27,292 bases of DNA from a plasmid: sequence record NZ_CP084927.1. One strand, given 5' to 3'. How positions within the stretch are numbered: position 1 is the first letter of the stretch; each line of letters opens with the position of its first letter. The notes under the pieces are model-generated. The model worked only from the letters and a program-made list of their open reading frames with translations. It searched no databases and had not been told where the DNA came from. The position numbers and the translations under genes are program-made. Of this stretch, positions 2,166 through 22,370 are shown one piece after another.

Positions 2166-3377
2166 ATGTCATTTGTAGTGGCGAGAATGCAGAAGATGAA
2201 AGCTGGCAATTTGGTCGGAATTGGGAATCATAATCAACGGTTAATTGACAATCATTCAAACAAAGATATTGATACGGAACGCTCGTATTTGAATTATGAC
2301 TTAGTCAATCGTACAGACAATTACAAAACAGATATTCAGCAATTTATTAACGAAAATAAATTGAGTAGTCGTGCTGTCAGAAAAGATGCTGTATTAATAA
2401 ACGAATGGATCATAACTTCTGACAACCAATTTTTTAAAGATAAAGACGATAAAGAAATTAAAGATTTTTTTGATACTGCGAAATCATATTTTGCGGACAA
2501 ATTTGGCGATAATAATATCCGCTACGCTCAAGTTCACTTAGACGAAACAACACCGCATATGCACTTAGGTATTGTGCCTTTCAATGCGGAAAAAAAGCTA
2601 TCAGCAAAGACTGTTTTTAATCGTCAGGCCTTACAGGCGGTACAAGATGAATTACCAAAATATTTAAATGAGCGTGGTTTTGAGCTTGAACGTGGCGAAA
2701 AAGGTTCAGAGCGTAAAAATTTAACGGTGCCTGAATATAAAAAGGCAAAGGACGAATTGAAAGAGATGAATACCACGCTGGAACAGCGGAAGTCAGAAGT
2801 TTTAGCTTTATCGAAAGGTAAAACAGCGACTATAAAAAAAGAGAGTTTGGATTTAAAAGACGAAACGAAAACAGTCAAAGTACCAAGTGGCGAAACCATT
2901 GGTATTGGTAAGTTGCGACACGAATTCATGAAAAATGAAGAACGAAAAACAGGAAATATAATTATCCCTGAAAGTAAATTAAATGCATTGATTAAAAGCT
3001 ATGAAGAGCTATATAGAGCGAATGAGCAACTAAAGGAATATGCGGAAACTGATTTACCTAAAGAAATCACTAGAGTTAAAGAGAAATATCGCGAATTAGC
3101 GAAAGATTACAATAAGTTGGTACGTAAGAGTAATCAGAATATTGAAACACTTGAAAAATTAGAGAAAGAGAATAAGTCGCTTAAAAACGAAATTAAAGGC
3201 ATTTACAAAGGGTTTAAAGAGTACTTTAAAGATTCTAAGCAAGTTACAACTGAACAGGTTAAAACGCTTGTTAGTGGCGTTGTAGACAAAGTAAAAGAAT
3301 TTGTAAAAGGTGGAGAGTTTGAAAAAATTCATAGAAATGAAACTCGAACACGAGATAGAGATGAATTAAGTCGTTAG
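2166..3377 (+). CDS. mob: MobV-family relaxase (Pre/Mob, plasmid recombination enzyme).
   Basis: N-terminus [17 protein letters not shown], HxH motif [12 protein letters not shown], and a coiled-coil C-terminus typical of Pre/Mob_Pre. The start is moved from 2118 to ATG 2166, which has SD aggag. The 2118 start would read through the oriT. Confidence 0.9.
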
Positions 3378-3399
3378 AAGCTCATATTTGCGTTTTAAG

Positions 3400-3680
3400 G
3401 CGTTTTAAATCAATCCTAGTATATTTATACCTGTTTGGTCTTTTCGTCGGTATAAGCGTTAAAAATGGCAATAGAAAAAGCAGCAAGGGCGAACGTAGTG
3501 AGTGCATTTACCCTTGCAGCTTTTTTTGTTGTCATTTAGCTTTTGTAAACCGACAGAAAAGCCAACAGGTATGACTGTTTACTCACTTTTCAGAGGCATG
3601 ATCAAACGCATTGCGTTTGTCAGGTGTGGGCGGAAGCCCACGGTTTTTAAAAGGGTTCCGAGGCTCAACGTCAATAAAGC
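3400..3680. other. Possible ssoA-like single-strand origin between mob and lnu(A).
   Basis: Non-coding, with a ccgacag-containing hairpin region (ttttgtaaaccgacagaaaagccaacagg) and long imperfect palindromes. Assignment is by position and motif resemblance only. Confidence 0.25.
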
Positions 3681-3682
3681 AA

Positions 3683-4168
3683 TTATGTTATTGATTTTAA
3701 ATTTTTTATATCAAAATGGTCTTTTTCTGTTAAATCATAACCAGAATGAAAAAGAAGTTGAGCTTCTTTTGAAATACATGGTATTTTTCGACCTTTGTAA
3801 TTAGTTTCTGAAAACCAGTCATTTTGGAAAACATAATTACCACCTTCTGGGTTTGCTTGGGTAATTGATCCATCATCATTTAGATTTATAGGATGAATAT
3901 CTAAATACCCATATTCTTCATGCTTAAGTTCCATACGTGAAGGCATCCAATCAACTTCTATTTTATATCCGATATCTTCTAATTTTTGTATAACTTTTTG
4001 AGTGTGTTGAGCGTCAAAATCTATATCTATATCTCTGTGTTCTCTTTGTTGTTTTCCAGTTAATACATCTACCCCCCAGCCACCATCTAACCAATAAGTT
4101 ACTTTCATGTGTTCAAATAAATCTAAAATATAAAATAAATCTTTTTCTGTTACATTATTATTTTTCAT
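3683..4168 (-). CDS. lnu(A): Lincosamide nucleotidyltransferase Lnu(A).
   Basis: 161 aa (MKNNNVTEKDLFYILDLFEHMKVTYWLDGGWGVDVL...) matching LinA/Lnu(A). SD aggaggg. Confidence 0.95.
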   Translation of the reverse strand: MKNNNVTEKDLFYILDLFEHMKVTYWLDGGWGVDVLTGKQQREHRDIDIDFDAQHTQKVIQKLEDIGYKIEVDWMPSRMELKHEEYGYLDIHPINLNDDGSITQANPEGGNYVFQNDWFSETNYKGRKIPCISKEAQLLFHSGYDLTEKDHFDIKNLKSIT

Positions 4169-4347
4169 TTTATCCCTCCTAACTTGGGAATTTGAAACGA
4201 GTTGAAAACGAGTTTCTTCTTGTCTTGAGTAGCATTTAAATTGCCAAAAGCTCTAGCTAATTCATTTGCTTGTGTAACTAAATAGGTTTGTCTATCTAAT
4301 AAGTTCTCTAATGCGTTTTTTGCTTTTTTATTTTCGACCATACTCAT
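4165..4347 (-). CDS. 60-aa hypothetical protein translationally coupled (ATGA overlap) to lnu(A).
   Basis: Good SD (tgaggtg, 6 nt from ATG). Its stop overlaps the lnu(A) start. No recognisable family. Confidence 0.45.
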   Translation of the reverse strand: MSMVENKKAKNALENLLDRQTYLVTQANELARAFGNLNATQDKKKLVFNSFQIPKLGGIK

Positions 4348-4365
4348 AAAAACACCTCAAATTTC

Positions 4366-4481
4366 AATACGTACTTTTTTATATAGTATATAATAACATA
4401 AAATATACCAATAACAATATTTATAAAAATAATATATAGTTAACGTACTTTTTTATATAGTTAACGTACTTTTTTATATTT
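4366..4481. repeat. Three copies of a 21-bp motif ttaacgtacttttttatatag, two of them in tandem, upstream of the 60-aa/lnu(A) operon.
   Basis: Direct inspection. An inverted copy lies at 7620-7645. Candidate operator or iteron. Confidence 0.5.
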
Positions 4482-4499
4482 TAAAGTGCATTAAACGTT

Positions 4500-4647
4500 G
4501 ATATAAAGGCATTTCTTTTCCTCTAATGTAATATAATGTATTACAATGTATTCTATAAATGTATCTTATTAAAGGCTGAATAAAATAAAAATTTCAAAAA
4601 AAGAAAAAAACACACTAAATAAATTCTTAAAATATTTTCTATTGTTT
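4500..4647 (-). pseudogene. Degenerate copy of the promoter and first ~20 codons of the Rep_trans gene (copy P3).
   Basis: The reverse complement of 4500-4560 aligns with atgtatacattctattacattaggga..., the 5' end of ORF 21075-22169. No downstream ORF. Confidence 0.5.
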
Positions 4648-4744
4648 AGCTAGACTAAAATTGCAGTTCTAGCAAATTGTGGTTCAGAAAGACACTGGGT
4701 CGCTCCGCTTATGCTATAACTCTAGTTAATCTACAACCATGCAA
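4648..4744 (+). repeat. Repeat B, copy 1 (~95 bp, contains an internal inverted repeat agttctagcaaa/tttgctagaact).
   Basis: Near-identical copies at 22266-22359 (direct) and 7363-7454 (inverted). Confidence 0.8.
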
Positions 4745-4762
4745 ATATAGACAAAACATGCT

Positions 4763-4838
4763 ATAATCATAGTGAAAAGATCAAAGTTACAAACAAAAAG
4801 CCCCCTAGATATTTGCGGTATCTAGGGGGTTATTTTGT
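4763..4838 (+). ncRNA. Candidate RNA II-like antitoxin sRNA of a par(pAD1)-type locus.
   Basis: Extended -10 tgctataat at 4754-4762. It runs into the bidirectional terminator at 4797-4838. It contains the direct repeat gatcaaagttacaaaca, whose second copy (4978-4994) overlaps the toxin start. Confidence 0.4.
4797..4838. terminator. Bidirectional intrinsic terminator shared by the convergent toxin mRNA and antitoxin RNA.
   Basis: Stem ccccctagata/tatctaggggg, with an A-run 5' and a T-run 3'. Confidence 0.6.
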
Positions 4839-4913
4839 TATTTCAGTCGCTGCCATTACTTAATCTAACAATAATGAGTCACAAACTGTTTTCAGGCTAA
4901 TTGTCTAACAAAG

Positions 4914-4997
4914 TTATCTATCTAGCCATTTGCAAATGTAATAGGCTATCACACCTGCTACGATAGATAAAAGAAAATTGATCAAAGTTGCAAACAT
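4914..4997 (-). CDS. Fst/Ldr-family type I toxin, 27 aa: MFATLINFLLSIVAGVIAYYICKWLDR.
   Basis: Single transmembrane segment followed by a WL(D/R) tail, typical of Fst-like toxins. SD aaggggg. Promoter with extended -10 tgctataat on the minus strand at 5063-5071. Confidence 0.55.
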   Translation of the reverse strand: MFATLINFLLSIVAGVIAYYICKWLDR

Positions 4998-5095
4998 TAA
5001 ATCGCCCCCTTTATTGTTGCAAGGACGATTTAGGCAGCAATTAACCGCCTTATTAGCTCAGACAACCTAAAAATTATAGCATAAGTGCTGACAAA

Positions 5096-5335
5096 TACAT
5101 TCTAAGCAAGCGTTCAAGTTGAATTTGGGTTATTATTCATGAAATCAACCGAGAAAACACCTTAGAAACCTTGATTTAATAGCTTTTTTAGCTGATTTAT
5201 GCTATAATTACTCCTGTAGTGATTAATGATCTACTTTGAAATCACTACATCATAACCACGTAAAAAAGATAGAGCCGATTATATTAATCGGCTCTATTTG
5301 CTATCTAAAATCAATTATAAGACATTTTAAATCAT
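5096..5335 (+). repeat. Repeat A, copy 1 (~240 bp). Contains a hairpin terminator (agagccgatta...taatcggctct) and an extended -10 promoter-like tgctataat.
   Basis: Inverted copy at 6700-6952. Partial direct copy at 22727-22830. A short piece (aaaccttgatttaataagctttttttt) lies next to the theta origin at 9398-9428. Confidence 0.75.
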
Positions 5336-6699
5336 TTCAAGTGTAATTATATTAAAAAGGGATAAAACGTCTAAAACACCCATTAAATTAGATTTAAACC
5401 ATATGTATTAATTTAATTAGTTAGCTATCACTTTAAATGCACTAATTTTATATAGCAGATAATACTTCTGCTGCCGAGACGGAAAAAATTATTTTTCTTT
5501 GGAATAACGAAGTAAAAAATTATGTGAACTGGATACAGTAATTTTTAAGAGCTTGAAAATAAGCTCTTTTTTATTTTTTGAAAAACGAAACAAAAGAAGC
5601 AAAACTACAAAATCATTTAGCTAAGTTGTAAAACGAAGCTCTGCATTCTGTACAACTAAGCTAAAGAGCATAAGTGAGAATGGTCATCCGTAGGCGGATG
5701 AGCCGACAGTGTCGGCATTCTCTCAATGACCAAATTTTCTCGCTTGTTACACAGCTATTTAACACTTGTTTTACAACTAATTTACACTTTGTTTTACGCT
5801 TATTTTACGTAAAACATTTGTTAAACATTTTTAAAATGCTATAAAAAATAGCCATCATATTTGTGACGACCAAATTTTTTTAATGTTTTTTGAGGAGCTT
5901 AGTTTTTTAAGCTCTTTTTTTATTTTTATAATATTTATATAGCAGAGAAAATTTTTCTTCCAGTTATTTTTCGTAAGAAAAAAGGAAACTGGAAGAAAAA
6001 TAATTGTAAGACGTTTGTCCCACAAAAAATAAATTTTAGTTTTTGAAAAGTGATACAAATGTGGCACGTGATATAAGTGTGCTACAAGTTGTGTTACAAC
6101 TGTGTTGTATTAGTTAGTATAGTGTGTTACACACGAGAAAATTAAGTCCCTAAGAAAACGCCGATACTATCGGCTCCCACGCACCTGTGGGACCATTTTC
6201 TCTTATGCTCTTTAACTCTGTACTCCAGTTTAGAAGATGCGAAAATTTTATTCTCAAAATTCGTTAAGTGGGTTTGAAGATTTTTTTCTTTGTTTAATTT
6301 TTTTGAAAAAGAAAAATTGAATTTAAGAAATTTTTTTGGCTCAAAATTAAATTTAAAAATCGAAAATCAAAAATAATATTAGTTCGGCAAAAATAAAAAC
6401 CTTAGAAGAAGAAAATAAATCATTACGTGATGAATTACAATTTTTCAAAAATTATGCTCAAAGATGGAATGTTAATGGGGAAAATGTAACTAAAATTATC
6501 TCTAAAGCTTATCTAAATAATAATAATAATGATTAAGAATAATTTATAGTATTTTAAAAAATATAAAATTAATATAAATAAAAAACCGTACAAAGGTACC
6601 TATGGCTTTTTTTATCTTTTTTCTGTATATAACTTTAAACCAAAATTAAGGGGGTTATTTGACGTTTTACAGCCTTTGAATAAATTACACTCAGAATGA

Positions 6700-6952
6700 T
6701 TTAAAATGCCTTAAAATTGATTTTAGATAGCAAATAGAGCCGATTAAATTAATCGACTCTATCTTTTTTTACGTGGTTATGATGTAGTAATTTCAGAGTA
6801 GATCATTAATTACTACAAGTTTAATTGTACCATAAATCAGCTAGAAAAGCTATTAAATCAGGGTTTCTAAGGCGTGATCTTTACTAATTTAATGAGTTAC
6901 TGCCTTATTTGGACTTGAAGTCATGCTTAGAATGCGTCTGACAGCACGAAAA
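6700..6952 (-). repeat. Repeat A, copy 2 (inverted).
   Basis: Aligns with the reverse complement of 5096-5335. It shares gtcagacgcattctaagca...caagt and gccttagaaaccYtgatttaatagctttt with copy 3. Confidence 0.75.
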
Positions 6953-7137
6953 AAGGCGGTATCCAAACCGCCCAAGCTAACACCGATGTTCAATAACTAG
7001 AGTGACTAATTCTAGTCTTCTGTGTTCAGCGCTATTTATACTCATTACACACTTATTATAACATTTTTTTTGTTATAATGCTATTTGTGTTCAGCAAGGT
7101 TTGACTAACCTTAGCGACACGAAAGGAGGAATCCTCC

Positions 7138-7281
7138 GTGAAGTTCGTTATTATACTCATTATCGTGCCTAACAAGCACGTAAAACGTTTTGCTAAGCTA
7201 GTAGCTCTCGCAGTTATTAGAACTGGTAAAATTGCAATTAAAAAGGCTATTGAACGCTTGGTTAGTTGGCTTAATGATTAA
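7138..7281 (+). CDS. 47-aa small cationic membrane peptide (VKFVIILIIVPNKHVKRFAKLVALAVIRTGKIAIKKAIERLVSWLND) with a GTG start. Candidate type I toxin.
   Basis: The SD ggagg lies inside a perfect hairpin ggaggaatcctcc. A paralog lies at 22443-22541 with a conserved N-terminus KIFVVIFLVPNKHVK. An intrinsic terminator follows at 7317-7352. Confidence 0.4.
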   Translation: MKFVIILIIVPNKHVKRFAKLVALAVIRTGKIAIKKAIERLVSWLND

Positions 7282-7362
7282 GTTCTGATAGTTGGTTACC
7301 AACGGAAGATAGTCATTTCAGCGGTTCTCTTTGAGAGTCGCTGTTTTTTTTGCTTTAAATAG

Positions 7363-7454
7363 CATGGTTGTAGATTATCTTGAGTTTTAGCATAAGCGGA
7401 GCGACCCAATGTCTTGCTGAACCACAATTTGCTAGAACTGCAAGTTTAGTCTAG
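7363..7454 (-). repeat. Repeat B, copy 2 (inverted).
   Basis: The reverse complement aligns with B1 and B3. Confidence 0.8.
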
Positions 7455-7620
7455 TTAAAAAATAGAGAAATTATTTTAGTAATTAAGTTGATGAGCTTTA
7501 TAAGTTTTTTTATTTTATTTTATTTTTTTATTTGCATGCGCCTTAAAAAGATACATTTATATGTATACATTCTATTACATTAGGGAGGAAAGAAATACCT
7601 TTATATCAACGTTTATAGCA
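7455..7620 (+). pseudogene. Second degenerate copy of the Rep_trans promoter and 5' end (copy P2). It reads MYTFYYIREERNTFISTFIAL then stops.
   Basis: 7561 atgtatacattctattacattagggagg... equals the first 11 codons of the 22169 ORF, then diverges to a stop. Confidence 0.55.
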
Positions 7621-7867
7621 CTTTAAAATATAAAAAAGTACGTTAACTATATATTGTTATCTATTATATACCTTTTTATATATTTTATGTTATTATAGAC
7701 TATATAAAAAACTACGTATTAAAATTTGAGGTGTTTTTATGGGAGTAATGAATAGTCAGTTCTATCTAGAAATATAACTGTTAGTTCAAATATTGATTTC
7801 ATAAAAATACCCCTATCTTTAATTTGATAGGAGTATTATCACATATTTTTAATGGCAAAGGTAGTTT

Positions 7868-9076
7868 TTAGTCACTAGTATCTTTATTAATCTTCTCAAG
7901 TAGTTCATCTATCTCTTTACTTCTTTGTATTCCTTTCTCTGTCAGGATATTTTTTTGAGCAGTATCATCCTTAGCCCAATCAGGTAATTTTTCTTTCTGT
8001 TTGAGCTTACTCTTATCTCTTTTGGCATATTTACCCTTATTCTTTTCAAAGTCGTCTAGAGCCTTTATTAGATACTTATCTAGTTCATTTGGCTTGGAGT
8101 TCATATGATCCTTAACGTACTTCAAATGTTTTTGTAGGTCATCTAATGAGTGTTTATTTACGAATACATCATACTTAGGATATACATTTTCCCCTAAGCT
8201 CATCATCAGCGATTCATTATTTGCATCTGCGAAATTTACTATCATTGCTCCAAGTAATAACGCTGTATATGGCGAATTTTGGACGTCTGATAGCGATAAT
8301 TTCTTCTCAGCTGTAAGTTCCCCTATTAGCTTTTCTGTTGAATTATTGGATATATGGAACTGAATCTTTGCTATCTTTCTGCCGACCCTAATAGTATCGT
8401 ATGTAATGTTAAATTCAGTATGCTCGTTAATTTCTTTTATTGCTGGTTCAATTACTCGCTTTTTTAAGTCTGAGAAACGATCATAGCTCTTTTTACCTTG
8501 TACTGTCAGTGCTTTTAACTCAGAAACGTCAATAACTGGATTTAAAAAACTCTCTAGCTCTTCTTTAGTTCTTTTCCCATTAGCTATATAGTTAGTATAT
8601 TGGTTATAGTACATCATCAATACCTTGTATATAGTGATTGTATTAGATGACGTAAAGTGCCTTAAATCTTCAATTCTGTACTGTGTAAAGTTCTTCTTCA
8701 ACTCCGTTATATACGGCATTATTTTATTAGAAAATGATAATTTAACCGTTGATTCATCTTCACTGAACTCAATTTTTGAAAATGGTGCAAAGATTTCTGT
8801 CTTTTTCTTTCCGTTCTCTTTAGTGTACTTTACTGTAAATGTACTTTTATCCATTAAGTTTGTCATAATTGTCTGTAGATAATCGTGTCGTAAAGCATTA
8901 GTTCTCGGCAAAAATGTCCTAATCAAGTCTTTTTCAAGCTCGACTTCTGGATCTTTTTCTTTTGTGTCTACATTAGCTACTGCCAGTTCAAACAGTTTTA
9001 AAGGTAGTGCATCCATTTTAGCAATAGCCTTAATTAAAGTATTACTTTGGACGACTTTTTTATTTTGTAAGTCCAT
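7868..9076 (-). CDS. repB: Theta-replication initiator, Rep_3 family (RepB-like, pCI305/pWV02-type).
   Basis: 402 aa with Rep_3-like architecture. Gene sits immediately downstream of the iteron array and A+T-rich region, the canonical lactococcal-type theta replicon arrangement. Confidence 0.85.
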   Translation of the reverse strand: MDLQNKKVVQSNTLIKAIAKMDALPLKLFELAVANVDTKEKDPEVELEKDLIRTFLPRTNALRHDYLQTIMTNLMDKSTFTVKYTKENGKKKTEIFAPFSKIEFSEDESTVKLSFSNKIMPYITELKKNFTQYRIEDLRHFTSSNTITIYKVLMMYYNQYTNYIANGKRTKEELESFLNPVIDVSELKALTVQGKKSYDRFSDLKKRVIEPAIKEINEHTEFNITYDTIRVGRKIAKIQFHISNNSTEKLIGELTAEKKLSLSDVQNSPYTALLLGAMIVNFADANNESLMMSLGENVYPKYDVFVNKHSLDDLQKHLKYVKDHMNSKPNELDKYLIKALDDFEKNKGKYAKRDKSKLKQKEKLPDWAKDDTAQKNILTEKGIQRSKEIDELLEKINKDTSD

Positions 9077-9162
9077 CTATGTTTCCATCCTTTTTATTAA
9101 AAACGACAATTTTTGTCTGCAATTAAGTCTTATTTATTCTTAAAATAGACAACTAAAATAAT

Positions 9163-9391
9163 TTGTCTGTAGTTTGCAAAAGTTGTCTGTAGTTTATGTA
9201 TTATTGTTATATACGCTAATTTATCTTACATTCAATATAATACCACACAATACTACAGACATATATAACTAATTTGTCTGTAGTTTGCAAAAGTTGTCTG
9301 TAGTAACTGCAAAAGTTGTCTGTAGTAACTGCAAAAGTTGTCTGTAGTAACTGCAAAAGTTGTCTGTAGTAACTGCAAAAGTTGTCTGTAG
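9163..9391. repeat. Replication origin iterons. The 22-bp repeat ttgtctgtagtaactgcaaaag occurs ~5.5 times in tandem, plus two degenerate pairs further 3' (toward repB).
   Basis: Perfect tandem 22-mers at 9283-9391 and degenerate copies at 9163-9206 and 9264-9300. An A+T-rich stretch with (aaagata)n lies at 9430-9500. Confidence 0.85.
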
Positions 9392-9765
9392 TTCAGTCCT
9401 AAAAACCTTGATTTAATAAGCTTTTTTTTCGCCTAAAAGAAAAAGATAAAAAGATATAAAAGAAAAAGATAAAGAATAGACAAAAATACAGACAATATTT
9501 ACATACATAATGGCTAGTACTCAGATGCACTACTAGCCATTAAATATAGTTTCAGCTAGCTATTTCAAATAAACTCGTTATTAAATACAGTTTTAACTCG
9601 TTGTTTAATAAATCAATATATTGTAATATCAGTACTTTTAATAAATGCAGGTACAATATTTATTTAGACTTTTTATTTACTAGTTTCTTTAGAAAAAGGA
9701 CTATTATAATATTGGTTGACACGATATAATTTACTCGAAATATACTTTGAAAGCACGTGATTATT

Positions 9766-9942
9766 ATGAGTTTAGAAGATATTTATTATTTAGTTGGATA
9801 TATTATTTGTGATGCCTTTTTAATGTGGTACTTACCGTCAGATACAATCGTTGAAGTTATAATAGATATTATCATTGCAACAGTCTGTATGGTTGGAGTG
9901 TATACTATCATACGATTTATGTATAATCGGCAAAATAAATAA
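9766..9942 (+). CDS. 58-aa two-transmembrane small hydrophobic protein, function unknown.
   Basis: ORF with a basic tail (RFMYNRQNK). No SD. The GTG at 9757 is the alternative start. Weak. Confidence 0.2.
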   Translation: MSLEDIYYLVGYIICDAFLMWYLPSDTIVEVIIDIIIATVCMVGVYTIIRFMYNRQNK

Positions 9943-10141
9943 TGTTAATTTTAGAGAATGCTTTAGTCATAAAAATATACAAAATAACAATAAAATGTTA
10001 TTATATAAGTGTAGAAAGTTACGAAATTGGTAGACATAAGTGCTACCCGGTTGGCAGGCAACGGAAAAACCTGTGATTTTATGATAATCATCTTAGATTA
10101 TCCGGTTGGCAAGCAACGGAAAAACTTGTGAGCGTAACTAA

Positions 10142-10176
10142 AAAGCGTTGGTAAGACATACCAGCGCTTTTTTTAT
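10142..10176. terminator. Bidirectional intrinsic terminator.
   Basis: aaaaagcgttggtaagacataccagcgcttttttt: a hairpin with A- and T-runs on either side. Confidence 0.5.
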
Positions 10177-10412
10177 TTTAATTTTTCAATTTTCTTTGTA
10201 ATTAAGTTTTGTCGTTTAATTTCTAAAACGTTATAAGCTGTAATATGTATTTTCTCCTGTCTCAAAGCCAGTAACGATATTGGAATACTAAATGATTTAA
10301 GACCCTTACAAGCAATAGCTAAAATAGCCTTGTTAGACCTAATTAGACTATCATAACTCAGATGTCTAAATTTACCAGATTCTGATACTCTGGCCATATC
10401 ACCTATAAGCAT
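10173..10412 (-). CDS. Hypothetical 79-aa ORF adjacent to the IS right end. Possibly the C-terminal part of a gene split by the IS insertion.
   Basis: It begins just outside the predicted IS end and stops at the terminator. Paired with fragment 12669-12908 on the other side of the IS. Confidence 0.3.
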   Translation of the reverse strand: MLIGDMARVSESGKFRHLSYDSLIRSNKAILAIACKGLKSFSIPISLLALRQEKIHITAYNVLEIKRQNLITKKIEKLK

Positions 10413-10711
10413 CTCTAGATTTTCAATGACAGATAACTTTAACCTTGAAAATCCATTTTTATCGTAATTTAAATTATTTATTTGAACTACCTGTGATTAA
10501 AATCACAGGAATCACGTCACGTGATTACATTACGTATACTATACTCATAGTACACGCTCCGAACCTAGTTATAATGACTGGAAATACCACCATTATACTA
10601 AAGATAATCTTCACTAATTATCGTACCTGTTTTGACTCGCTCAAGGTATTACGCATAATTTCGTGCTATTAGTTCGGTAGGATTTGTTCCGTTTCCTAAA
10701 AACTTCGTTTT

Positions 10712-12109
10712 TTAAATTATTTCAACTAAGTTATTTGCTTTTAATTTAGGATAATCTCTTAGTTTTGCATGTTTTTCTGGGTATAAACCCCATTCTTTGA
10801 TATTTAAAGCTGCATTATAATCTCTATCTACCTCTTTACCAGTATATGCTGAAACATATATACGTTTACCATCTTCATTAACTTCTTTTAACTCGTGTTT
10901 TGACTCGTATTTAGTCCCATATTCTACTTGGCTCGTTTTATATGGATCCACTTTAATAAGAGTTTTATTTTGCTTGTTTACTAACGACTCTATAATTTTT
11001 GATAATTCATAAGGTTTGATTAAAGCTAATCGCTTATTCTTACCTGTATTCTGTGTTTTATTCATTGACAAATTACGTTTTCTCATCTCAAAAGCATCTA
11101 TTTTTTCGATGATGATAGTATCGTAGTCATCGACTAATTCGTGTACTAATCCTCTATATGTTTCAGTTAGGATATTAGCTTTTTTAGCACTTAGCTTTGC
11201 TTGTTTACGATGATACCTTCTCCATAAATCTGTTTTACCATGTTTATTGTATTCATTATCTCTTAGTGACTTTATTTTATCTTTTTTAAATTCTATTTTA
11301 CCTACTTTTTCTATTACTTTTTTAGGAATAGCTATTACTTTGTTTTCAGAAGTCCTAAATACTTCATTTTTAAACATGTTCCAATCTGCACCAACAACTT
11401 TATTTTGAAAAATACGTTTCTTCTCACGAGTAAAAGTTATTTGTAGTCTAAATGTATTATCTGGTAATCTTTTAATCTTAGTTAAAGCTATCTCTTCAAA
11501 ATTAATATTCTTTAAATTCTCAAATACTATTATTTCTCCAAAATCGGCTACATTTAAATGGTGTGGCGAAACCAATTTTGTATTGCCATTAGGCAATTTT
11601 TGTGAAGTAATTGTCCTAAACGAGTTATTATTTCGTAGAAAGTTCATTGAACCCTTACGATACCATGAACGGTGTTTAGGATTTTTGTGCTTACCGTTTT
11701 TATCTTTAGTAATATTCATTCTAAGATTATATTTTTCAACATCTGACATTCGCCCTGCTTGTTCCAATCTCTTACGATACTGAGAAAAATTAGTGAAGAT
11801 TGTCTTTAAAAATTCATCTGCGGCATGAGAAGATAATCCTAGTTTCTTAGCATTCCAGCGTTTTAAGTCGTATTTTTCTTTAATAAACATTGCCTTAATT
11901 TTATTATTAAGGTAGTTTATTCCTTGTCCAAAAGGTAAAGGTCTACCAATATGTTTACGACCATAGGTCTTATATAAGTATTTCAATGTAAATTGATATA
12001 ACTCATTTTGTATTTTTATTGCTTTTTCATACAATTCTATTTGTTGATAACTTAAAGAAATATGATATTGTCTTGTATATCCAAATTTATTACTCTTCTT
12101 TTTAACCAT
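10712..12109 (-). CDS. tnpB: TnpB (IS605 OrfB-family RNA-guided nuclease).
   Basis: 465 aa with the C-terminal RuvC-III/Zn-finger region (…YTGKEVDRDYNAALNIKEWG…). Confidence 0.9.
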   Translation of the reverse strand: MVKKKSNKFGYTRQYHISLSYQQIELYEKAIKIQNELYQFTLKYLYKTYGRKHIGRPLPFGQGINYLNNKIKAMFIKEKYDLKRWNAKKLGLSSHAADEFLKTIFTNFSQYRKRLEQAGRMSDVEKYNLRMNITKDKNGKHKNPKHRSWYRKGSMNFLRNNNSFRTITSQKLPNGNTKLVSPHHLNVADFGEIIVFENLKNINFEEIALTKIKRLPDNTFRLQITFTREKKRIFQNKVVGADWNMFKNEVFRTSENKVIAIPKKVIEKVGKIEFKKDKIKSLRDNEYNKHGKTDLWRRYHRKQAKLSAKKANILTETYRGLVHELVDDYDTIIIEKIDAFEMRKRNLSMNKTQNTGKNKRLALIKPYELSKIIESLVNKQNKTLIKVDPYKTSQVEYGTKYESKHELKEVNEDGKRIYVSAYTGKEVDRDYNAALNIKEWGLYPEKHAKLRDYPKLKANNLVEII

Positions 12110-12174
12110 TCATGTAACCTCCTTTCGAGAAATATATGTTATAATTATTATAATATTAAAAGGGTGGTATGTAA

Positions 12175-12615
12175 ATGATTATACATGAAGAGGGATACGT
12201 TTATAACTTCAATTTTCACTTAGTTTTCGTTACTAAATACCGAAGAAAAATATTTGACACTCAAGAGAAAGTGAACACTATGAAAGCTATTTTACAACGA
12301 CAAGCAACTATTTCAGAAGTAACTGTTAGTCAGTTAGAGGTTATGCCAGACCATGTACATATGTTAATTTCTTTTAAGCCTAAATATGCTCCATCTAATA
12401 TTGTTAAAAATCTTAAAGGAGCGTCAGCTAGAATATGGTTTAAACAATATCCTGAAACTAAACAATTATTATGGGGTGGACACCTATGGTCTCCTAGCTA
12501 TTACATGGGTACTCTAGGGGATATGAGTAAAGAAGTCGTAGAAAAATATATTGAATCTCAATATACAGAAGCTATGAGAAGACAGCTTAAAGGCTACTAT
12601 GGTAAAAATAGATAA
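12175..12615 (+). CDS. tnpA: IS200-like Y1 (HUH) transposase TnpA.
   Basis: 146 aa. HUH motif PDHVHMLISF and the conserved Y-containing C-terminus. Typical size. Confidence 0.9.
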   Translation: MIIHEEGYVYNFNFHLVFVTKYRRKIFDTQEKVNTMKAILQRQATISEVTVSQLEVMPDHVHMLISFKPKYAPSNIVKNLKGASARIWFKQYPETKQLLWGGHLWSPSYYMGTLGDMSKEVVEKYIESQYTEAMRRQLKGYYGKNR

Positions 12616-12668
12616 GTTAGTTTAGCGGGCTTGACCCCTGATTGAAATCAGAGGTTTGCGCCCGTTTT

Positions 12669-12908
12669 CTAATCAATTCTATTGTCTGCTAGATCTTCAT
12701 AAAATTTCTTAGGACCCCTGTAATACGAAAGGCCTGTTAGATGTTGGAAATTAGCTTTACTAAACCTGACAACCAATGTTTTATCTTCATTTCCTACTCT
12801 ATACAAATAAGTATACTCATAGTTCTTGAAATAATTATCGTACAATTCAAAGCCTTTTTTTAACTTATCAAAATCAATTTTACTTATTGCCATATATTTA
12901 CCTTCCAA
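12669..12908 (-). CDS. Hypothetical 79-aa ORF ending exactly at the IS left end. Possibly the N-terminal part of the IS-disrupted gene.
   Basis: Its stop codon falls at the predicted IS boundary. It overlaps the start of the upstream gene by 11 nt. Confidence 0.3.
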   Translation of the reverse strand: MEGKYMAISKIDFDKLKKGFELYDNYFKNYEYTYLYRVGNEDKTLVVRFSKANFQHLTGLSYYRGPKKFYEDLADNRID

Positions 12909-13395
12909 ATAATCTCGACCAGAAGCCCTTATTTTTCTCTTCTAAGAGTTTTTTCTCTAGTTCCTGTATCTTTGTATCTTTCTCATTTAGAACGTCTGTA
13001 TTCGCTTCTATGAGCTTTGTGTTAGTTGCTTCAAGCTCTAAACGCTTAGATTGTTCCGTTCTAGCTAATTGCTGCTCTTGTGACAGCAGCCTATGTAACT
13101 CGGAGACCTCATCTTCTTTTGAATCAAGTCTTTTTTGTAAATCTTGTACTTGGGCCTTTAATGTCGTTATATACTCATCTTTACTGATAGAGTCGTCGGA
13201 TGAAGTTTGATTAACTTCTCTCTCTTTCTTTTCTTCTGCAAAAAACGTCAGCATTTCATGAGCATCATCTTCTGAGAAATAATCAGTGCGACCTACTCTT
13301 TTTGTTGGCTCAACATTATGAGCTTTTATGTATCTAAAAACCTTTTGTGGTGAAACTTGTGCTTCTTCTGCAATTTTCTTTCTAGTATATTCCAT
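12898..13395 (-). CDS. HTH plus coiled-coil plasmid protein (DNA-binding N-terminus, long charged C-terminal coiled coil).
   Basis: The N-terminus (KKIAEEAQVSPQKVFRYIKAHNVEP) resembles an excisionase/MerR-like HTH. The C-terminus is heptad-rich in K/E/L/Q. It is preceded by an array of TTATATAAC-like repeats at 13396-13640. Confidence 0.5.
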   Translation of the reverse strand: MEYTRKKIAEEAQVSPQKVFRYIKAHNVEPTKRVGRTDYFSEDDAHEMLTFFAEEKKEREVNQTSSDDSISKDEYITTLKAQVQDLQKRLDSKEDEVSELHRLLSQEQQLARTEQSKRLELEATNTKLIEANTDVLNEKDTKIQELEKKLLEEKNKGFWSRLFGR

Positions 13396-13641
13396 AATAT
13401 TACCCCTGTTAGATTTATATTACCTATATATCAATGCATACATATAACATTATTATAACGAGTTATTTTCATTATATAACGAATGAAATATATAAGCATA
13501 ATATTTCAACTTATTTTATCGTTATACCGAGTTATATCAAATGTAATAAGATGTGAAATGTTTTAATGTATAAATTGCTGATATTAAGCATAATACATTA
13601 TATAACATATTGTAACTGTGTTATTTTGTGATATAACATTG

Positions 13642-13971
13642 TTACTTACTAGATAGGGGAGTTAAGTAGCCGCCCTTCTCCAATTCCGATAGGGCATTTT
13701 TTATAAGCTCCTTATCATCAAGTTTGCTGTTGTTAATAGCGTAGAGTATATCTGGATCAAATTTGTTGCTAGTAGCTCCAGATTGATTAAATCTAACTAA
13801 ATCAAGCAATATCCCCTTAGATGTATAACTCAAATTACTATCTTTCATGGCTCTATCTATCAATTCAGGCATGATTCCTTGATTTGAAAATAGGGGGCTT
13901 GCTGTTAATTGATTATCTTCCATTAATTTATCAAGTTTTGTCATTCTATCACTCCTTTTACTGTTCTTCAC
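13642..13971 (-). CDS. Hypothetical 109-aa protein overlapping the resolvase stop.
   Basis: 14-nt overlap with the upstream resolvase suggests co-transcription. No family recognised. Confidence 0.4.
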   Translation of the reverse strand: MKNSKRSDRMTKLDKLMEDNQLTASPLFSNQGIMPELIDRAMKDSNLSYTSKGILLDLVRFNQSGATSNKFDPDILYAINNSKLDDKELIKNALSELEKGGYLTPLSSK

Positions 13972-14527
13972 TTTCCACTTGCTTTACTATCCTTTGAATA
14001 GTGGATTTTGAAATTTCAAATGCCTTAGCAGTTTCTGTATATGAGTGGCCAGAAGTCTTATACTCATATATCATTCTATATTTCGGTGTTATAACCCGTT
14101 TAGGACGTCCTTCACGATAATTTTTATTATGCAATTTAGCGTATTTCTTGCCTTCCTGGGTTCTCGTAACAATCATATCACGCTCAAATTCTGCGAAGGC
14201 TAGGACTACATTGCGCATCAATTTACCACCGGCAGAATCATCTAAACGTCCCATATTAAGAACGTTGACTGTTATATCACGTTTGAAACATTCATCCAGG
14301 AATTTAGTTGTTTCGCTTGTTTTGCGTCCGAGACGATCTAACCTAGTTACAATTAATTCATCTCCTGGTAACAGTCGTTTCTTTAATTTTTGAAATTCAG
14401 GTCGTTTATTAGTTCGACCAGTAAATTTTTCATAGTAGATTTTTTCAGCACCTGCACGCCTCAATTTTTCGATTTGTTCATCAAGACTTTGTTGAGGAGT
14501 TGAAACTCGAGCATAACCAAAAATCAT
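13958..14527 (-). CDS. res: Serine recombinase (resolvase/invertase family).
   Basis: 189 aa. Catalytic-Ser N-terminus (GYARVSTPQQSLDEQ) and C-terminal HTH, the architecture of small serine resolvases. Confidence 0.9.
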   Translation of the reverse strand: MIFGYARVSTPQQSLDEQIEKLRRAGAEKIYYEKFTGRTNKRPEFQKLKKRLLPGDELIVTRLDRLGRKTSETTKFLDECFKRDITVNVLNMGRLDDSAGGKLMRNVVLAFAEFERDMIVTRTQEGKKYAKLHNKNYREGRPKRVITPKYRMIYEYKTSGHSYTETAKAFEISKSTIQRIVKQVESEEQ

Positions 14528-14754
14528 AAATATTCTCCATTTCTTTTTGACTATAATTTTCTGAATATATTACAAATGTTATTATATCACTATATTGGGT
14601 GTATTCAATCTGTTGACAGTTTTTGAACAAGGAGAGAGTAAAAAGTGAAATGCTTTAATCGAATTAAAATTATATTAATTTTAACTTAGAAAACAGTTGC
14701 ATAAAATATAATTTTAAGCTAGAATTACTTTATCAAGTTAAAGGATTGATTGTA

Positions 14755-20107: not shown

Positions 20108-20205
20108 TTAAAACATCTCCTTATAATGTTGAAACTACTTACACTATAAAGCTATTTCTAAGAAAATCAAGGGTGCTTTTTATAAACTACTAAAATACTA
20201 TAAAA

Positions 20206-20303
20206 AGGCAATGCATCTGCGTTCAGTCGTTGTCTCGTGCTCGTGGTTCCACAGGGTTCCACGTCCCTGTGCGCGAGCCAACTCCCTCACTTGATGCATT
20301 GCC
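20206..20303. repeat. 13-bp perfect inverted repeat (aaggcaatgcatc/gatgcattgcctt) enclosing a 72-bp GC-rich insert. The whole structure is followed, on the minus strand, by a U-run.
   Basis: Direct inspection. GC content is far above the local average. Internal hairpin cacaggg..ccctgtg. Confidence 0.45.
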
Positions 20304-20329
20304 TTTAATTCGTGGTGTAACTCTGGTCT

Positions 20330-21082
20330 TTATGCCACCTGCAGCTTCTGTCCAACTCTCAAAGTCGTATCATACGTTAATCTGTTGATTTTAAGCAGTT
20401 CTTCAATGCTCAACCCATGCTGATATGCCACCAGCCACAGCGTATCGCCAGGTCGTACAACGTATGTATTACTCAAATCTAGCTGAATACCCTGATTACC
20501 TAAAATCTCAGTATAGTAGCCGAGAAAGTCATATGACATCTTAACTTCTAAACCATGCCAATCATTTGTAAAACGCCATGTTCCAACGCCGTCAATACCT
20601 GAATTACAAGCATAATATTTAATTGCCCATAGGTTGCCATAATCGCATTTATCAAAGTTAGTCAGCAGGTTTTCAGTTCTGAATTGTAACCCAGTTCTCT
20701 TATATCCGAACTCTTTTATTACACTTCGAAATGCTCTGATATTCTCTATCGTATCATCATCTACTCTCATACTAGATACATCTAACACTAGAGCAGTCTC
20801 ATCATTTAACTTAGTACTATGTAGATATTCGCCAAAGTGCCACGCTTCTTTTATAGCTTCATCTTTAGACCTGAAATCTGCCTTATGCTTAAAATGATAT
20901 AGCATATTAGCGTGCTGACAGGCGTGTTTTAACTCGAGTTCATGCAGGTTTACCCAGCTAACACCATGAGTAAGCTCAATAACGCAAGCTCTCACGCCTT
21001 TAGCTGCCAGAAATTCAATCTCTTTGGCAGTGAATCTATCTTCTTTCCCTATCTCTGCTAATAGGTTGTAACATCTAACCAT
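20330..21082 (-). CDS. GH25-family muramidase with a C-terminal LysM domain.
   Basis: GH25-like GVRACVIELTHGVSWVN, YHFKH and LVLDVS motifs. C-terminal LysM (YVVRPGDTLWLVAYQHGLSIEELLKINRL...GQKLQV). 8-nt overlap with the upstream gene. Confidence 0.75.
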   Translation of the reverse strand: MVRCYNLLAEIGKEDRFTAKEIEFLAAKGVRACVIELTHGVSWVNLHELELKHACQHANMLYHFKHKADFRSKDEAIKEAWHFGEYLHSTKLNDETALVLDVSSMRVDDDTIENIRAFRSVIKEFGYKRTGLQFRTENLLTNFDKCDYGNLWAIKYYACNSGIDGVGTWRFTNDWHGLEVKMSYDFLGYYTEILGNQGIQLDLSNTYVVRPGDTLWLVAYQHGLSIEELLKINRLTYDTTLRVGQKLQVA

Positions 21083-22136
21083 TCTCGTCCCCCTTACGTT
21101 TACTTTGTTTCTTTTCTCTCTCTTGTTGATATTGGAAAATGGCTTGCTGGTGTTTATTTTTCAAGCGTGTATTGCCATTTGAAATCAGCTTATACAGCCA
21201 GTTAATCTCTCCGTCTAATGCAGTTACAACAGTTGCTAAAGTAGGTCCTATCTGCTTATCAAGCCATGTAATCATTTCATCAACTGTTTTATCTTGCTTT
21301 TTAATCGTTAGTTTTAATGGCTCCACATTTTCGAGTAATCTTTCCCACCATTTCGCCGTTTTCCACCTAGATTTATTACTATCTTTAGAGTTTTTAGGAC
21401 GTTGTACAAAGCGTATATACTGTTGTAACGTCCTTCTAATCACTAGCCCTACATTGCTACACTCAATCATATGTAATGCCAGCATCTTAGCCCTTTCCTT
21501 GCGATAAACAATTTCCAACCTTGTCCATTTTTCCGGAATTTCCTTATCTTCATTTTTTGCCTTGCGTTTTTGCTCCAGTGCCTTATCGTAAATACGGCAG
21601 AAAATATCAGACGTTTGAGAACCAAAATACATTGTCTGTCCTAGTAATTTACCGTCCCCAGTACTTCTACTGTTTAGCTCGTCCCATTTGTTCCAGCGTG
21701 ACGTAAATTCAGACTTTAATGCAGCTCTCCTGATGCGACTAAATTTAATAAGATCGTCCTTAAAGTCATCAATGGCCAAGTCTATACGACTGAGTTTAGC
21801 TTGCTTTTCCAAAGCTACAAGCACATTAATCAATGTATACAGTGATTTCTGACTTTCATACGCTCTGCATCCAGTCCCTGACAATATCACATGTACACCC
21901 ATATGAGTAATGCAAGGCTCATCATCAACTTGGTTAAACAATACAAACAGGTTTCCATTACCCCACTTGGTCTGCGCATTGTAGCCAAATTTTCCTTTAC
22001 TTAGGTCTGCGAAATCTTCTATTTTTAGTTGTAAAATCTTTTCAATAACATCTTCATAACTCAACTGAAAAATCGTAAATTCTAGCCAGTCAATTGATGT
22101 CTGTAATGTCTGCTTAATCGTTGATGTAACAGGCAT
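21075..22136 (-). CDS. Rep_trans-family protein, either a rolling-circle replication initiator or a MOB_T-type relaxase, ~353 aa.
   Basis: Size, composition and TRLEIVYRKERA-type region are consistent with the Rep_trans superfamily. The start is set at the second ATG (MPVTSTIKQ), because the remnant copy at 7598-7606 preserves a GGGAGG SD in front of it. The ORF-track start is 22169. Confidence 0.6.
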   Translation of the reverse strand: MPVTSTIKQTLQTSIDWLEFTIFQLSYEDVIEKILQLKIEDFADLSKGKFGYNAQTKWGNGNLFVLFNQVDDEPCITHMGVHVILSGTGCRAYESQKSLYTLINVLVALEKQAKLSRIDLAIDDFKDDLIKFSRIRRAALKSEFTSRWNKWDELNSRSTGDGKLLGQTMYFGSQTSDIFCRIYDKALEQKRKAKNEDKEIPEKWTRLEIVYRKERAKMLALHMIECSNVGLVIRRTLQQYIRFVQRPKNSKDSNKSRWKTAKWWERLLENVEPLKLTIKKQDKTVDEMITWLDKQIGPTLATVVTALDGEINWLYKLISNGNTRLKNKHQQAIFQYQQEREKKQSKRKGDENG

Positions 22137-22359: not shown

Positions 22360-22370
22360 AATTTAAAGCA

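Follow-up and report, generated by a model that had tools for sequence, protein, structure and literature searches.

The window analysed here, the whole 27,292-nucleotide stretch of plasmid record NZ_CP084927.1, carries lnu(A), a lincosamide nucleotidyltransferase gene (3683–4168, minus strand; Pfam Aminoglyc_resit, 2e-55) that is likewise annotated as lnu(A) in plasmid SNK-6 p2. A 60-aa ORF (4165–4347, minus strand) precedes it, and beyond this ORF lies a 3.4-kb region bounded by inverted arms. Self-BLAST of the window aligns 4345–4756 with 7741–7348 in inverted orientation (76.8% identity over 418 columns, 30 of them gap columns; E = 4e-75), and three ungapped sub-blocks (4345–4458 with 7628–7741, 4454–4518 with 7589–7653, and 4635–4756 with 7348–7469) reach 86–95% identity. 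The inverted relation continues inward at 5085–5398 against 6947–6634 (81% identity) and recurs as a weak self-palindrome at 5568–6316; in full, 4345–7741 is a quasi-palindrome. A first-pass annotation had described the arms as reverse complements with indels that share a junction, a description it would have dropped at less than about 70% identity or had no junction been common to both. The identity found lies above that level and the same junction occurs in each arm, at 4491/4492 on the left and 7615/7616 on the right. The small-toxin modules and structured non-coding DNA that it placed in the interior are also there.

Iteron-type Rep_3 theta replicons of lactic acid bacteria (pCI305/pWV02/pUCL287-like) are laid out as an AT-rich region, tandem iterons of ~22 bp, an operator repeat and the rep gene. 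Each arm resembles them in having an AT-rich tract, tandem 21-bp iterons, a further iteron between promoter and Shine-Dalgarno (SD) sequence, and a Rep3 start. Read in the rep direction, the junction passes from ATGCCT or ATACCT and TTATATCAACGTTTA into (A/T)(T/A)GCACTTTAAAATATAAAAAAGTACGTTAAC, and the 21-bp repeats, SD and ATG that follow correspond, judged by sequence, to the iterons, promoter and start codon of a Rep_3 theta replicon. By tblastn, the first 43 residues of the 60-aa ORF match 'replication initiation protein' (Rep_3-type) genes in 119 plasmid records. Over window positions 4218–5400, the left-type arm recurs in contigs L013 (97.5%) and L014 (95.5%), where an intact 476-aa ORF with Rep3_N and Rep3_C domains directly follows it; a Rep3_N/Rep3_C initiator also lies directly downstream in relatives L011 and L008. 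Because the arm fronts an intact 476-aa Rep_3 gene in L013 and L014, the junction is probably ancestral to a Ligilactobacillus salivarius replicon family, and it is not an oddity of this one plasmid.

The left origin remnant (4345–4491, minus strand), delimited by sequence, promoter scan and the layout in L014 and L005, comprises an SD (4353–4358), a distal iteron or operator (4366–4386), a promoter-like site (4417–4390) and two tandem 21-bp iterons (4440–4481). Upstream of it, alignments and the composition profile define a stub and AT-rich region (4492–4634, minus strand; 16–21% GC). The stretch is homologous to the SD and first ~8 codons of the Rep_trans gene; in it lie a mini-ORF that starts with the ATG at 4512, some ATACATT repeats and an A/T tract. 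Its counterpart on the right (7470–7615, plus strand; alignments and composition) has the Met12-equivalent codon mutated to ATA (7595–7597). PGAP starts Rep_trans at Met12, which an SD precedes, and the upstream ATG lacks one; the 11 to 20 Rep_trans codons formerly assigned to each arm thus become ~8 codons plus SD from the PGAP start, and 18 from the upstream ATG. The right origin remnant (7616–7749, plus strand), defined by alignment with L017 and L006, has an iteron (7628–7648), a distal degenerate iteron (7700–7722), an SD (7729–7734), an ATG (7739–7741) and 11 nt of rep, ATGGGAGTAAT (7739–7749), from which the rep genes of L017 and L006 run on. The stub ORF reported here as 11 codons is real but has 12, and its first 11 nt are in fact where a Rep_3 gene begins. 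Direct repeats of ~21–22 bp, in tandem on the left, thus lie immediately upstream of an initiator gene start in both arms, next to AT-rich DNA (16–21% GC at 4350–4650, 16–24% at 7450–7750).

What sets these arms apart from pCI305/pWV02/pUCL287-type replicons is that both rep genes are destroyed, that the two copies are inverted, and that a Rep_trans-like SD, a mini-ORF and repeat B (see below) lie upstream of the iterons. In the window, all that remains of the Rep3_N/Rep3_C initiator beside the arms is 40 codons on the left and 11 nt on the right, so the arms are remnants rather than replicons. Intact relatives have three or four tandem iterons plus one (three tandem in L014 and four in L005, with a layout otherwise as in the left arm). 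Other iteron variants follow the upstream module from the same point; L011, for one, has an unrelated iteron set there, and its Rep_3 protein is ~65% identical over its N-terminal 300 aa and 100% identical over its C-terminal 180 aa, which points to a swappable specificity cassette. One could suppose that the remnants function in trans, with a co-resident 476-aa Rep_3 firing or handcuffing their iterons, and that the pair is kept by selection instead of being scars. Both arms do share one iteron specificity (GTACGTTAAC core), along with the AT-rich region and repeat B, and the right remnant is 99.7% conserved across several pCTN1046-type plasmids; this conservation may, however, reflect recent common ancestry, the iterons are down to 2+1 and 1+1 against 3–4 tandem copies in intact replicons, and the window plasmid has no cognate rep. 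We regard selection for such a role as unlikely.

Inward of the AT-rich regions, alignments locate repeat B at 4635–4756 and 7348–7469. This conserved ~120-bp element can form an imperfect long hairpin, the fold being strong in the copy linked to Rep_trans (z −4.7) and absent in the left copy (z about 0). Elsewhere in the collections scanned it occurs only on plasmids of L. salivarius and on three contigs from gut MAGs that look like such plasmids, one of these contigs being binned as Ca. Ligilactobacillus excrementavium. A MOBQ oriT was considered for repeat B and rejected: the nick core TAAGTGCGCCCT does not occur in it at up to 3 mismatches, nor anywhere in the window at fewer than 2, and in the complete units L006, L008, L014 and L017 the canonical core lies between mobQ and a 178-aa coiled-coil gene. 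A 3' remnant of the latter (6375–6633, plus strand) precedes block X here as the gene does in complete replicon units, and window 6517–7749 aligns to L006 2974–4183, directly downstream of the 178-aa gene. Block X, located by self-comparison, is present in two inverted copies (5085–5398 and 6634–6947). The left copy has small terminator hairpins and a 99-bp repeat that recurs at 22735–22833, within a third copy of the upstream module (22115–22833, minus strand) comprising the 99-bp repeat, a 32-aa toxin, repeat B and an AT-rich region. This third copy lies upstream of the intact Rep_trans gene (21075–22169, minus strand); its identity is 86% with the right arm and about 80% with the left. The longest exact matches are 36 bp between the two arms, 32 bp between the left arm and the third copy, and 62 bp between the right arm and the third copy. 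Inversion or deletion between arm copies is possible in principle; the sole other plasmid that carries both arms showed no such isomer.

Between repeat B and block X, each half has a toxin cassette, and the two cassettes are unrelated to each other. On the left, the ORF list, a terminator search and reading of the sequence delimit an Fst/par-like type I toxin-antitoxin module (4762–5070, minus strand) with a 27-aa hydrophobic toxin (4914–4997), a bidirectional terminator called on both strands (4799–4831), a candidate convergent antitoxin RNA (−10 box at 4762–4767) and direct repeats (4780–4796 and 4980–4996) that span the toxin start codon. The module thereby resembles par (Fst RNAI/RNAII) of pAD1 in pairing a small hydrophobic toxin ORF with convergent transcripts that use a common bidirectional terminator, and in that, through the direct repeat, the candidate antitoxin RNA is complementary to the region where the toxin ORF starts. 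Unlike par, it has no Pfam match to the Fst toxin family and, in Rfam at E ≤ 1, nothing but a weak SpF66 match (E 0.53); an NCBIfam type I toxin match (Clostridioides model, 2.4e-5) falls below cut-off. Membership in the Fst toxin or antitoxin RNA families is thus not supported by sequence, though the module is predicted to work in a par-like way. The second candidate type I module (6950–7343, plus strand; terminator search and ORF list) differs from par in its divergent layout and is likewise without a family match. Its 47-aa toxin candidate (7138–7281) has its SD sequestered in a GGAGGAATCCTCC hairpin and is followed by a terminator (7319–7343); a divergent antisense RNA ending at the minus-strand terminator 6973–6954 is the candidate antitoxin. 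In pCTN1046, SNK-6 p2 and NZ_CP137610 the 47-aa ORF bears the annotation hypothetical protein, and its 32-aa homologue is the one upstream of the Rep_trans copy.

The centre of the region is a remnant of a small Rep_1 rolling-circle plasmid (5457–6374, plus strand), 98.7% identical to pBNS11-3kb-1 1607–2520 and with a Rep_1 Pfam match. It retains the last 85 nt of rep (5457–5541), a terminator and two inverted structured elements (5648–5753 and 6123–6228), which may be sso-like; folds of the remnant's elements score z −2.6 to −4.1. Two related plasmids carry one half each. Plasmid pCTN1046 of L. salivarius JCM1046 has the backbone, right arm and centre in common with the window at 99.7%; the paper that describes it mentions only two rep genes and leaves the origin remnant undescribed (Raftis et al., 2014; PMC4165912). 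Comparison with relatives that lack lnu(A) had been proposed, and pCTN1046 is such a relative, but it lacks the left arm as well. NZ_CP137610 has the left arm and centre without the right arm. At 5460–5592 the window is of NZ_CP137610 type at 9/9 informative sites, and from 5675 to 6262 every informative site (73, then 27) except the one at 5966 is of pCTN1046 type. This SNP switch at 5593–5674 indicates that the two halves come from different lineages and were joined by a crossover. The left parent is inferred rather than observed, since NZ_CP137610 is only 92.5% identical over 4436–6323 and no plasmid in PLSDB is an exact donor of the left half.

The arms themselves point the same way. From repeat B to the junction they are 76% identical to each other in the identity matrix, whereas single copies in pBNS11-37kb (L005), L013 and L014 match the left arm at 100%, and the single copy in pCTN1046 matches the right arm at 100%. 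An inverted duplication in situ would leave the arms closest to each other; on this comparison they are instead alleles of different plasmid lineages. The first-pass annotation had taken the identical stub/iteron junction and the inverted orientation of the arms as signs of one truncation of Rep_trans within the plasmid, followed by an inverted duplication that left a 3.4-kb segment open to inversion or deletion. That the junction goes back to one ancestral event stands, and it occurs elsewhere before intact Rep_3 genes. The duplication does not stand: arms at 76–77% with indels sit in a backbone that is 99.7% identical to pCTN1046, each arm has its exact match as a single copy in other plasmids, the toxin cassettes of the two halves differ, and the SNP switch reveals two parental lineages. 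We therefore consider an in-situ duplication very improbable.

Inverted-repeat bounds, the want of a long ORF within and adjoining resistance genes would also suit terminal inverted repeats of a mobile element 3.4 kb long, be it a composite transposon or a mobile toxin-antitoxin cassette. There is, however, no transposase or recombinase ORF inside the region; the halves occur singly in other plasmids, with the arm running on into a rep gene; and the arms do not end as a transposon would, but at a rep start codon and at a deletion or nick-site junction. In PLSDB the whole unit occurs in only one other, near-identical plasmid, and never with target-site duplications in unrelated contexts. The chance that a mobile element is involved seems to us minimal. 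An assembly artefact, in which two co-resident plasmids were chimerically joined within their common ~0.9-kb rolling-circle remnant, would account for a lineage switch inside a repeat that is present on many L. salivarius replicons, small plasmids and megaplasmids alike. Against this, the complete plasmid SNK-6 p2 (NZ_CP101532.1), independently assembled from another strain, contains the entire 3.4-kb structure, joint included, at 99.5–99.9% identity, and aligned to that record the window closes into a circle. SNK-6 p2 also differs from the window in its cargo and in an IS200/IS605 copy at the position equivalent to 6365, which shows that the joint was passed on while the plasmids truly evolved. 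We take the structure to be real DNA and an artefact to be highly improbable.

The resistance gene adjoins the left arm and uses its ATG and SD, as had been noted, but the arm edge is not the point of capture. Segment 3313–4227, which includes lnu(A), is 99.9% identical by BLAST to the small Rep_1 rolling-circle plasmid NZ_CP084928.1 (L007), and similarity to lnu(A) plasmids stops at 4228. The left half of a pC194/pUB110-type dso, GAGTTTCTTCTTGTCTTG/A (4210–4228, plus strand), ends at the nick 4227/4228. There the window reads TTCTTCTTGTCTTG/AGTAGC and L007 reads TTCTTCTTGTCTTG/ATACTATAT; at the same site the Rep_1 plasmids L007 and L004 have TTCTT(G/A)TCTTG/ATACTATATAGAAA. Rolling-circle homology thus ends between G and A of TTCTT(A/G)TCTTG/ATA, the dso nick junction. 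The pC194-type nick-site consensus is CTTG/ATA (PMC5037232; PMC10378824), and a DSO-lnuA-SSO model has been published (Wassenaar et al., 2016; PMC5037232). The capture junction of the lnu(A) segment is 4227/4228, 117 bp into the left rep gene. The 60-aa ORF is accordingly chimeric: codons 1–40 (4229–4347) are a Rep_3 initiator N-terminus that, as far as the junction, does not differ from the 476-aa Rep_3 of L014, and the remaining codons read through the lnu(A) leader to a stop that overlaps the lnu(A) ATG. This resembles DSO-gene-SSO cases and illegitimate recombination at pC194/pUB110 nick sites in that the 99.9% identity to a Rep_1 plasmid stops at the CTTG/ATA nick. It differs in that the acceptor is codon 40 of a theta-type Rep_3 gene rather than another rolling-circle dso, with at most 1–2 nt of homology, and in that the product is a rep'-lnu(A) fusion operon.

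Taken together, these observations make it probable, at roughly 80%, that the region is a recombination joint of two inactivated, outward-facing Rep_3 origin copies from different lineages in a multiresistance plasmid of L. salivarius, with lnu(A) captured at one of them. Toward rep, each copy consists of block X, a type I toxin cassette, repeat B, the AT-rich region with its Rep_trans-like SD and mini-ORF, the 21-bp iterons, and the rep promoter/operator, SD and ATG. The right copy would derive from a pCTN1046-type backbone, its rep deleted after 11 nt and 1+1 iterons kept. The left copy would have come with the tet(M)-tet(L)-cat-mobV-lnu(A) cluster and been joined to the backbone by homologous crossover (5593–5674) in the ~0.9-kb Rep_1 remnant that both parents carried; the origin units would be inverted because this remnant lay in opposite orientation relative to the two. 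Before or after that crossover, a DSO-lnu(A)-SSO segment of a rolling-circle plasmid, joined at the CTTG/A nick, would have interrupted the left rep at codon 40.

The region is an ordinary, well-resolved case of resistance-plasmid mosaicism, and structures of its kind are already known. Replication of the window plasmid probably depends on an unrelated RepB (7868–9076) with 22-bp iterons (9286–9395). The orphan rep promoter, SD and ATG are likely to drive the 60-aa fusion ORF, which would be translationally coupled to lnu(A), and the two toxin modules presumably act in plasmid stabilisation. Where a co-resident plasmid encodes the cognate Rep_3, the orphan iterons could titrate that protein and so give rise to incompatibility.

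In a self-comparison of the window, 4345-4756 aligned in reverse complement with 7348-7741 (identity 76.8%; 418 columns, 30 of them gap columns; E 4e-75), with ungapped blocks reaching up to 86-95%. Homology to the region upstream of the Rep_trans gene gives way to 21-bp repeats at the same nucleotide in each arm (4491/4492 on the left, 7615/7616 on the right), and a third copy of the upstream part occupies 22115-22833, before the intact Rep_trans gene. The first-pass annotation had described inverted arms with a common junction, which these alignments bear out; its interpretation, a single truncation of Rep_trans followed by an inverted duplication, stands only in part. Two further inverted relationships had escaped it, one between 5085-5398 and 6634-6947 (81%) and one a weak palindrome at 5568-6316, so that the whole 3.4 kb is a diverged quasi-palindrome with no unique interior. 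ACAT(T/C) motifs are repeated throughout the stub, and a tandem 9-bp repeat, CAGACATTA CAGACATCA (22085-22115, minus strand), lies at the 5' end of the Rep_trans gene, just downstream of the end of its homology with the arms.

In 119 plasmid records, belonging to lactobacilli, lactococci, streptococci and enterococci, 'replication initiation protein' genes begin with a sequence matched by residues 1-43 of the 60-aa ORF (minus strand, 4165-4347). Scans of public collections recovered two relatives, L013 with the repeat B core and L014 with the junction sequence, that carry a left-type arm (97.5% and 95.5% identity, respectively); in both, an intact ORF of 476 aa, with the domains Rep3_N and Rep3_C, lies beyond it. 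In L014, an AT-rich region is followed by three ATATAAAAAAGTACGTTAACT iterons in tandem; then come a promoter-like stretch, one more iteron, AAATTTGAGGT and the ATG. Because of these N-terminal matches, the intact Rep_3 genes and the L014 layout, we identify the arms, from sequence comparison, as the origin and promoter region plus start codon of a Rep_3 theta replicon. On the left, 2+1 iterons and 40 rep codons survive; on the right, 1+1 iterons and 11 nt of rep (ATGGGAGTAAT, common to the rep genes of the relatives L017 and L006).

We then aligned the junction in 14 distinct copies, drawn from the window, plasmids, MAGs and metagenomes. Rep_3-linked copies all pass through ATGCCTTTATATCAACGTTTA and then into iterons, the exception being L008, a relative that diverges already just after repeat B. 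The iterons themselves vary: there are at least four related variants (cores GTACGTTAAC, CTACGTTAAC and CTGCGTTAAC), and the relative L011 has an unrelated set, TTCGTGTAGAAAAAGGTATAG repeated four times. The Rep_3 proteins of L011 (2683-4119) and L014 (1815-3245) share ~65% identity over the N-terminal 300 residues versus 100% over the last 180, by which the pair reads as a clear-cut specificity-cassette mosaic. Because of this contrast, iterons and the DNA-binding half of Rep behave as a specificity cassette, exchanged or diverging between conserved flanks, and a cassette of this kind explains why homology breaks exactly at the iteron start. We also considered the junction as a nick-site hotspot of Rep_trans; the Rep_trans copy has no hairpin or nick-like structure there (z about 0), and the coincidence of boundaries is better explained by the iteron/Rep-N-terminus cassette. 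Rep_trans-linked copies have the module to the same point and then Rep_trans coding sequence (counted from the SD-preceded Met12, the start used by PGAP), which makes one ancestral fusion of a Rep_trans upstream region with a Rep_3 cassette plausible. A junction scan of metagenomes returned five contigs, all of the same replicon family. The stub/iteron junction is old and family-wide: the single origin claimed for it is plausible as that ancestral fusion, an event much older than this plasmid.

Over the stretch from repeat B to the junction, no difference separates the left arm from the single copies in pBNS11-37kb, L013 and L014 (100% identity), or the right arm from that of pCTN1046, whereas left and right agree at only 76%; the toxin cassettes of the two halves are unrelated. 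These comparisons speak against an inverted duplication of one arm into the other. A ~0.9-kb centre is common to both lineages. At 5460-5592 the window is of the NZ_CP137610 type at 9/9 informative sites, and at 5675-6262 it is of the pCTN1046 type at every informative site (73 then 27) bar one, 5966. This switch argues for a homologous crossover at 5593-5674, in the shared centre, that would have made the inverted arrangement. NZ_CP137610 has the left arm and centre (4436-6323) and lacks the right arm; pCTN1046 has 5454-10481, 12672-14688 and 20191-23695 in common with the window and lacks 23696 through the plasmid start to 5453, that is, the resistance cluster and the left arm.

Within the centre, 5457-6374 matches part of an L. 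salivarius plasmid of 2.96 kb at 98.7% identity; the match takes in the final 85 nt of its Rep_1 gene and non-coding DNA downstream. Such a small-plasmid remnant, common to two plasmid lineages, would have served as the homology patch for their fusion. Within it, two inverted, strongly folding elements (5648-5753 and 6123-6228; z -2.6 to -4.1 as DNA) are probably single-strand-origin-like. Some 310 bp including one of these elements (5574-5884) also occur on L. salivarius megaplasmids of 200-360 kb at 92-98% identity, and could represent a dispersed patch for recombination, or else a small element that is mobile or structured. Next to the remnant, 6375-6633 holds the 3' end of a coiled-coil gene of ~178 aa, which in complete units precedes block X, with a canonical MOBQ oriT and mobQ beyond it. 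Together, the region is made up of two origin remnants, one from each of two plasmid lineages, that a crossover within a shared rolling-circle remnant brought together, with lnu(A) captured at a nick site. Exact matches run to at most 36 bp between the two arms, 32 bp between the left arm and the third copy, and 62 bp for the right arm against the third copy, where 7236-7620 and 22111-22488 align at 86% identity; inversion between this last pair is the most plausible rearrangement, and neither pCTN1046 nor SNK-6 p2 shows a rearranged isomer.

Homology to lnu(A) plasmids of many genera stops at window 4228, and 3313-4228 is 99.9% identical to NZ_CP084928.1, a 3.35-kb Rep_1 plasmid. At the junction the window reads GAGTTTCTTCTTGTCTTG/AGTAGC and NZ_CP084928.1 reads TTCTTCTTGTCTTG/ATACTATATAGAAA, while the Rep_3 gene of L014 provides GTTCAGTAGC. 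Double-strand origins of the pC194 type have CTTG/ATA as their conserved nick site (PMC10378824; PMC5037232), and lnuA forms a nick-bounded 'DSO-gene-SSO' segment (PMC5037232). Because the junction is this nick and homology ends there, the capture bears a rolling-circle nick-site signature and lies 117 bp inside the rep gene, not at the arm structure that had been proposed as the capture site. lnu(A) would thus have moved from a small rolling-circle plasmid to a larger theta plasmid by rolling-circle nick-site joining. A promoter scan of the 60 nt kept upstream of lnu(A) found no usable promoter, its sole promoter-like match overlapping the start codon. A rep promoter-like site (TTGTTA-16-TGnTATTAT) is present at 4417-4390, and the stop of the 60-aa fusion ORF overlaps the lnu(A) ATG; most likely, lnu(A) is transcribed from this site through the fusion ORF, and the orphan rep promoter now serving it is presumably derepressed.

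The left toxin module comprises a minus-strand ORF for a hydrophobic 27-aa peptide (4914-4997), a terminator at 4799-4831 that is predicted on either strand and an extended -10 box (4759-4767) for a putative convergent RNA of ~65 nt (about 4774-4835, plus strand). Because the direct repeat GATCAAAGTT(A/G)CAAACA occurs at 4780-4796 and 4980-4996, this RNA would be complementary to the toxin start codon region, a layout as in par/Fst. Pfam and Rfam searches show no family membership for the module, NCBIfam gives the toxin a sub-threshold type I toxin match, and neither the small toxins nor the 60-aa ORF has a family in Pfam. On the right, an ORF at 7138-7281 encodes a 47-aa peptide; its SD is sequestered by a GGAGGAATCCTCC hairpin, and a terminator follows at 7319-7343. 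From short repeats we infer a candidate divergent antisense RNA of ~105 nt (about 7050-6950, minus strand) ending at a minus-strand terminator (6973-6954). The third copy encodes a 32-aa homologue of this peptide. Inside both copies of block X, at 5190-5300 and 6730-6840, are an extended -10 promoter-like sequence and a GTAGTGATT...AATCACTAC hairpin, with a strong terminator hairpin in each (5269-5297, 6734-6762), and this part of block X looks like a candidate small RNA gene conserved between copies. In an Rfam scan of the whole window (E<=1), the arms, repeat B and block X were without a hit; only the tet(M) leader and, weakly, SpF66 over the Fst-like module were matched.

Repeat B (~120 bp; 4635-4756 and 7348-7469) is the most conserved part of the module, at 88-100% among copies. 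Its Rep_trans-linked copy forms a long imperfect hairpin (z -4.7 as RNA, about -2.8 as DNA); in the left arm the hairpin has degenerated (z about 0). Across the collections scanned, repeat B occurs only in L. salivarius plasmids and in three gut-MAG contigs similar to them, the latter found by extending the scan with the repeat B core beyond PLSDB to genome collections. As a MOBQ oriT it fails, the canonical TAAGTGCGCCCT core being located elsewhere in complete units. A coding role is unlikely: although a TTG-started frame is open in 3/3 copies, it lacks an SD, and the copies differ mostly by non-synonymous changes. Nor does it fit an antitoxin of the 47-aa toxin, as the complementarity of the right copy to the toxin 5'-UTR is not kept in the third copy. 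Repeat B contains an invariant TGAACCACA, which we take to resemble a DnaA box.

The window is a complete circular plasmid of Ligilactobacillus salivarius, both ends being contiguous in SNK-6 plasmid p2 (NZ_CP101532.1), the closest public record. It carries tet(M) (24005-25945) downstream of a leader/attenuator RNA (23800-23964; a strong Rfam match, 194 bits, 'Enterococcus sRNA 30'), tet(L), cat, a MobV relaxase gene and lnu(A), along with a Rep_3 initiator gene, RepB (7868-9076, minus strand), its 22-bp iterons (9286-9395) and the Rep_trans gene (21075-22169, minus strand). An IS200/IS605 copy (tnpA and a TnpB-like gene; 10482-12671) is inserted at 10481/10482 here, at the equivalent of 6365/6366 in the otherwise near-identical SNK-6 p2, and its site is empty in pCTN1046. 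ATCAA (TTGAT on the other strand) adjoins both insertions and neither has a target duplication; the positions fit recent, target-specific transposition. In pCTN1046 (~26230-26272), a hairpin, GAACTACCTGTAATTTTAATCACAGGTAGTTC, closely similar to the end of this element, ends the DNA immediately left of the rolling-circle remnant, and that differing flank may be an IS-family end or derivative. Two direct 40-bp repeats, 93% identical (695-734, just upstream of mobV, and 2111-2150, upstream of cat), contain TATAGTGTGTTATACTTTA, presumably the core of a pMV158-type MobV oriT/RSA, and suggest concatenated fragments of small mobilisable plasmids.

At least five Rep_3 iteron specificities occur, and each varies together with the DNA-binding, N-terminal half of Rep; one instance of the same upstream module is joined to a Rep_trans gene. 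A broader reading, which we think improbable at roughly one chance in four, is that the ~0.7-1 kb unit of block X, toxin cassette, repeat B, AT-rich ATACATT and mini-ORF is a shared L. salivarius origin chassis, with an exchangeable type I toxin cassette within it and initiator cassettes swapped at one boundary, and that repeat B is a host-factor or regulatory element and not a vestige. If true, repeat B would be common to theta and Rep_trans replication. Conceptually the findings add nothing new to plasmid biology; they are a well-resolved example of known processes, of modest interest. For annotation, 'hypothetical' stretches of pCTN1046-type plasmids become a remnant of an origin, modules for type I toxins and a rolling-circle remnant, features of which the pCTN1046 paper gives no account. 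The junctions give a base-by-base view of how lnu(A) would have passed from a small rolling-circle plasmid to a multiresistance theta plasmid in a gut and probiotic species.
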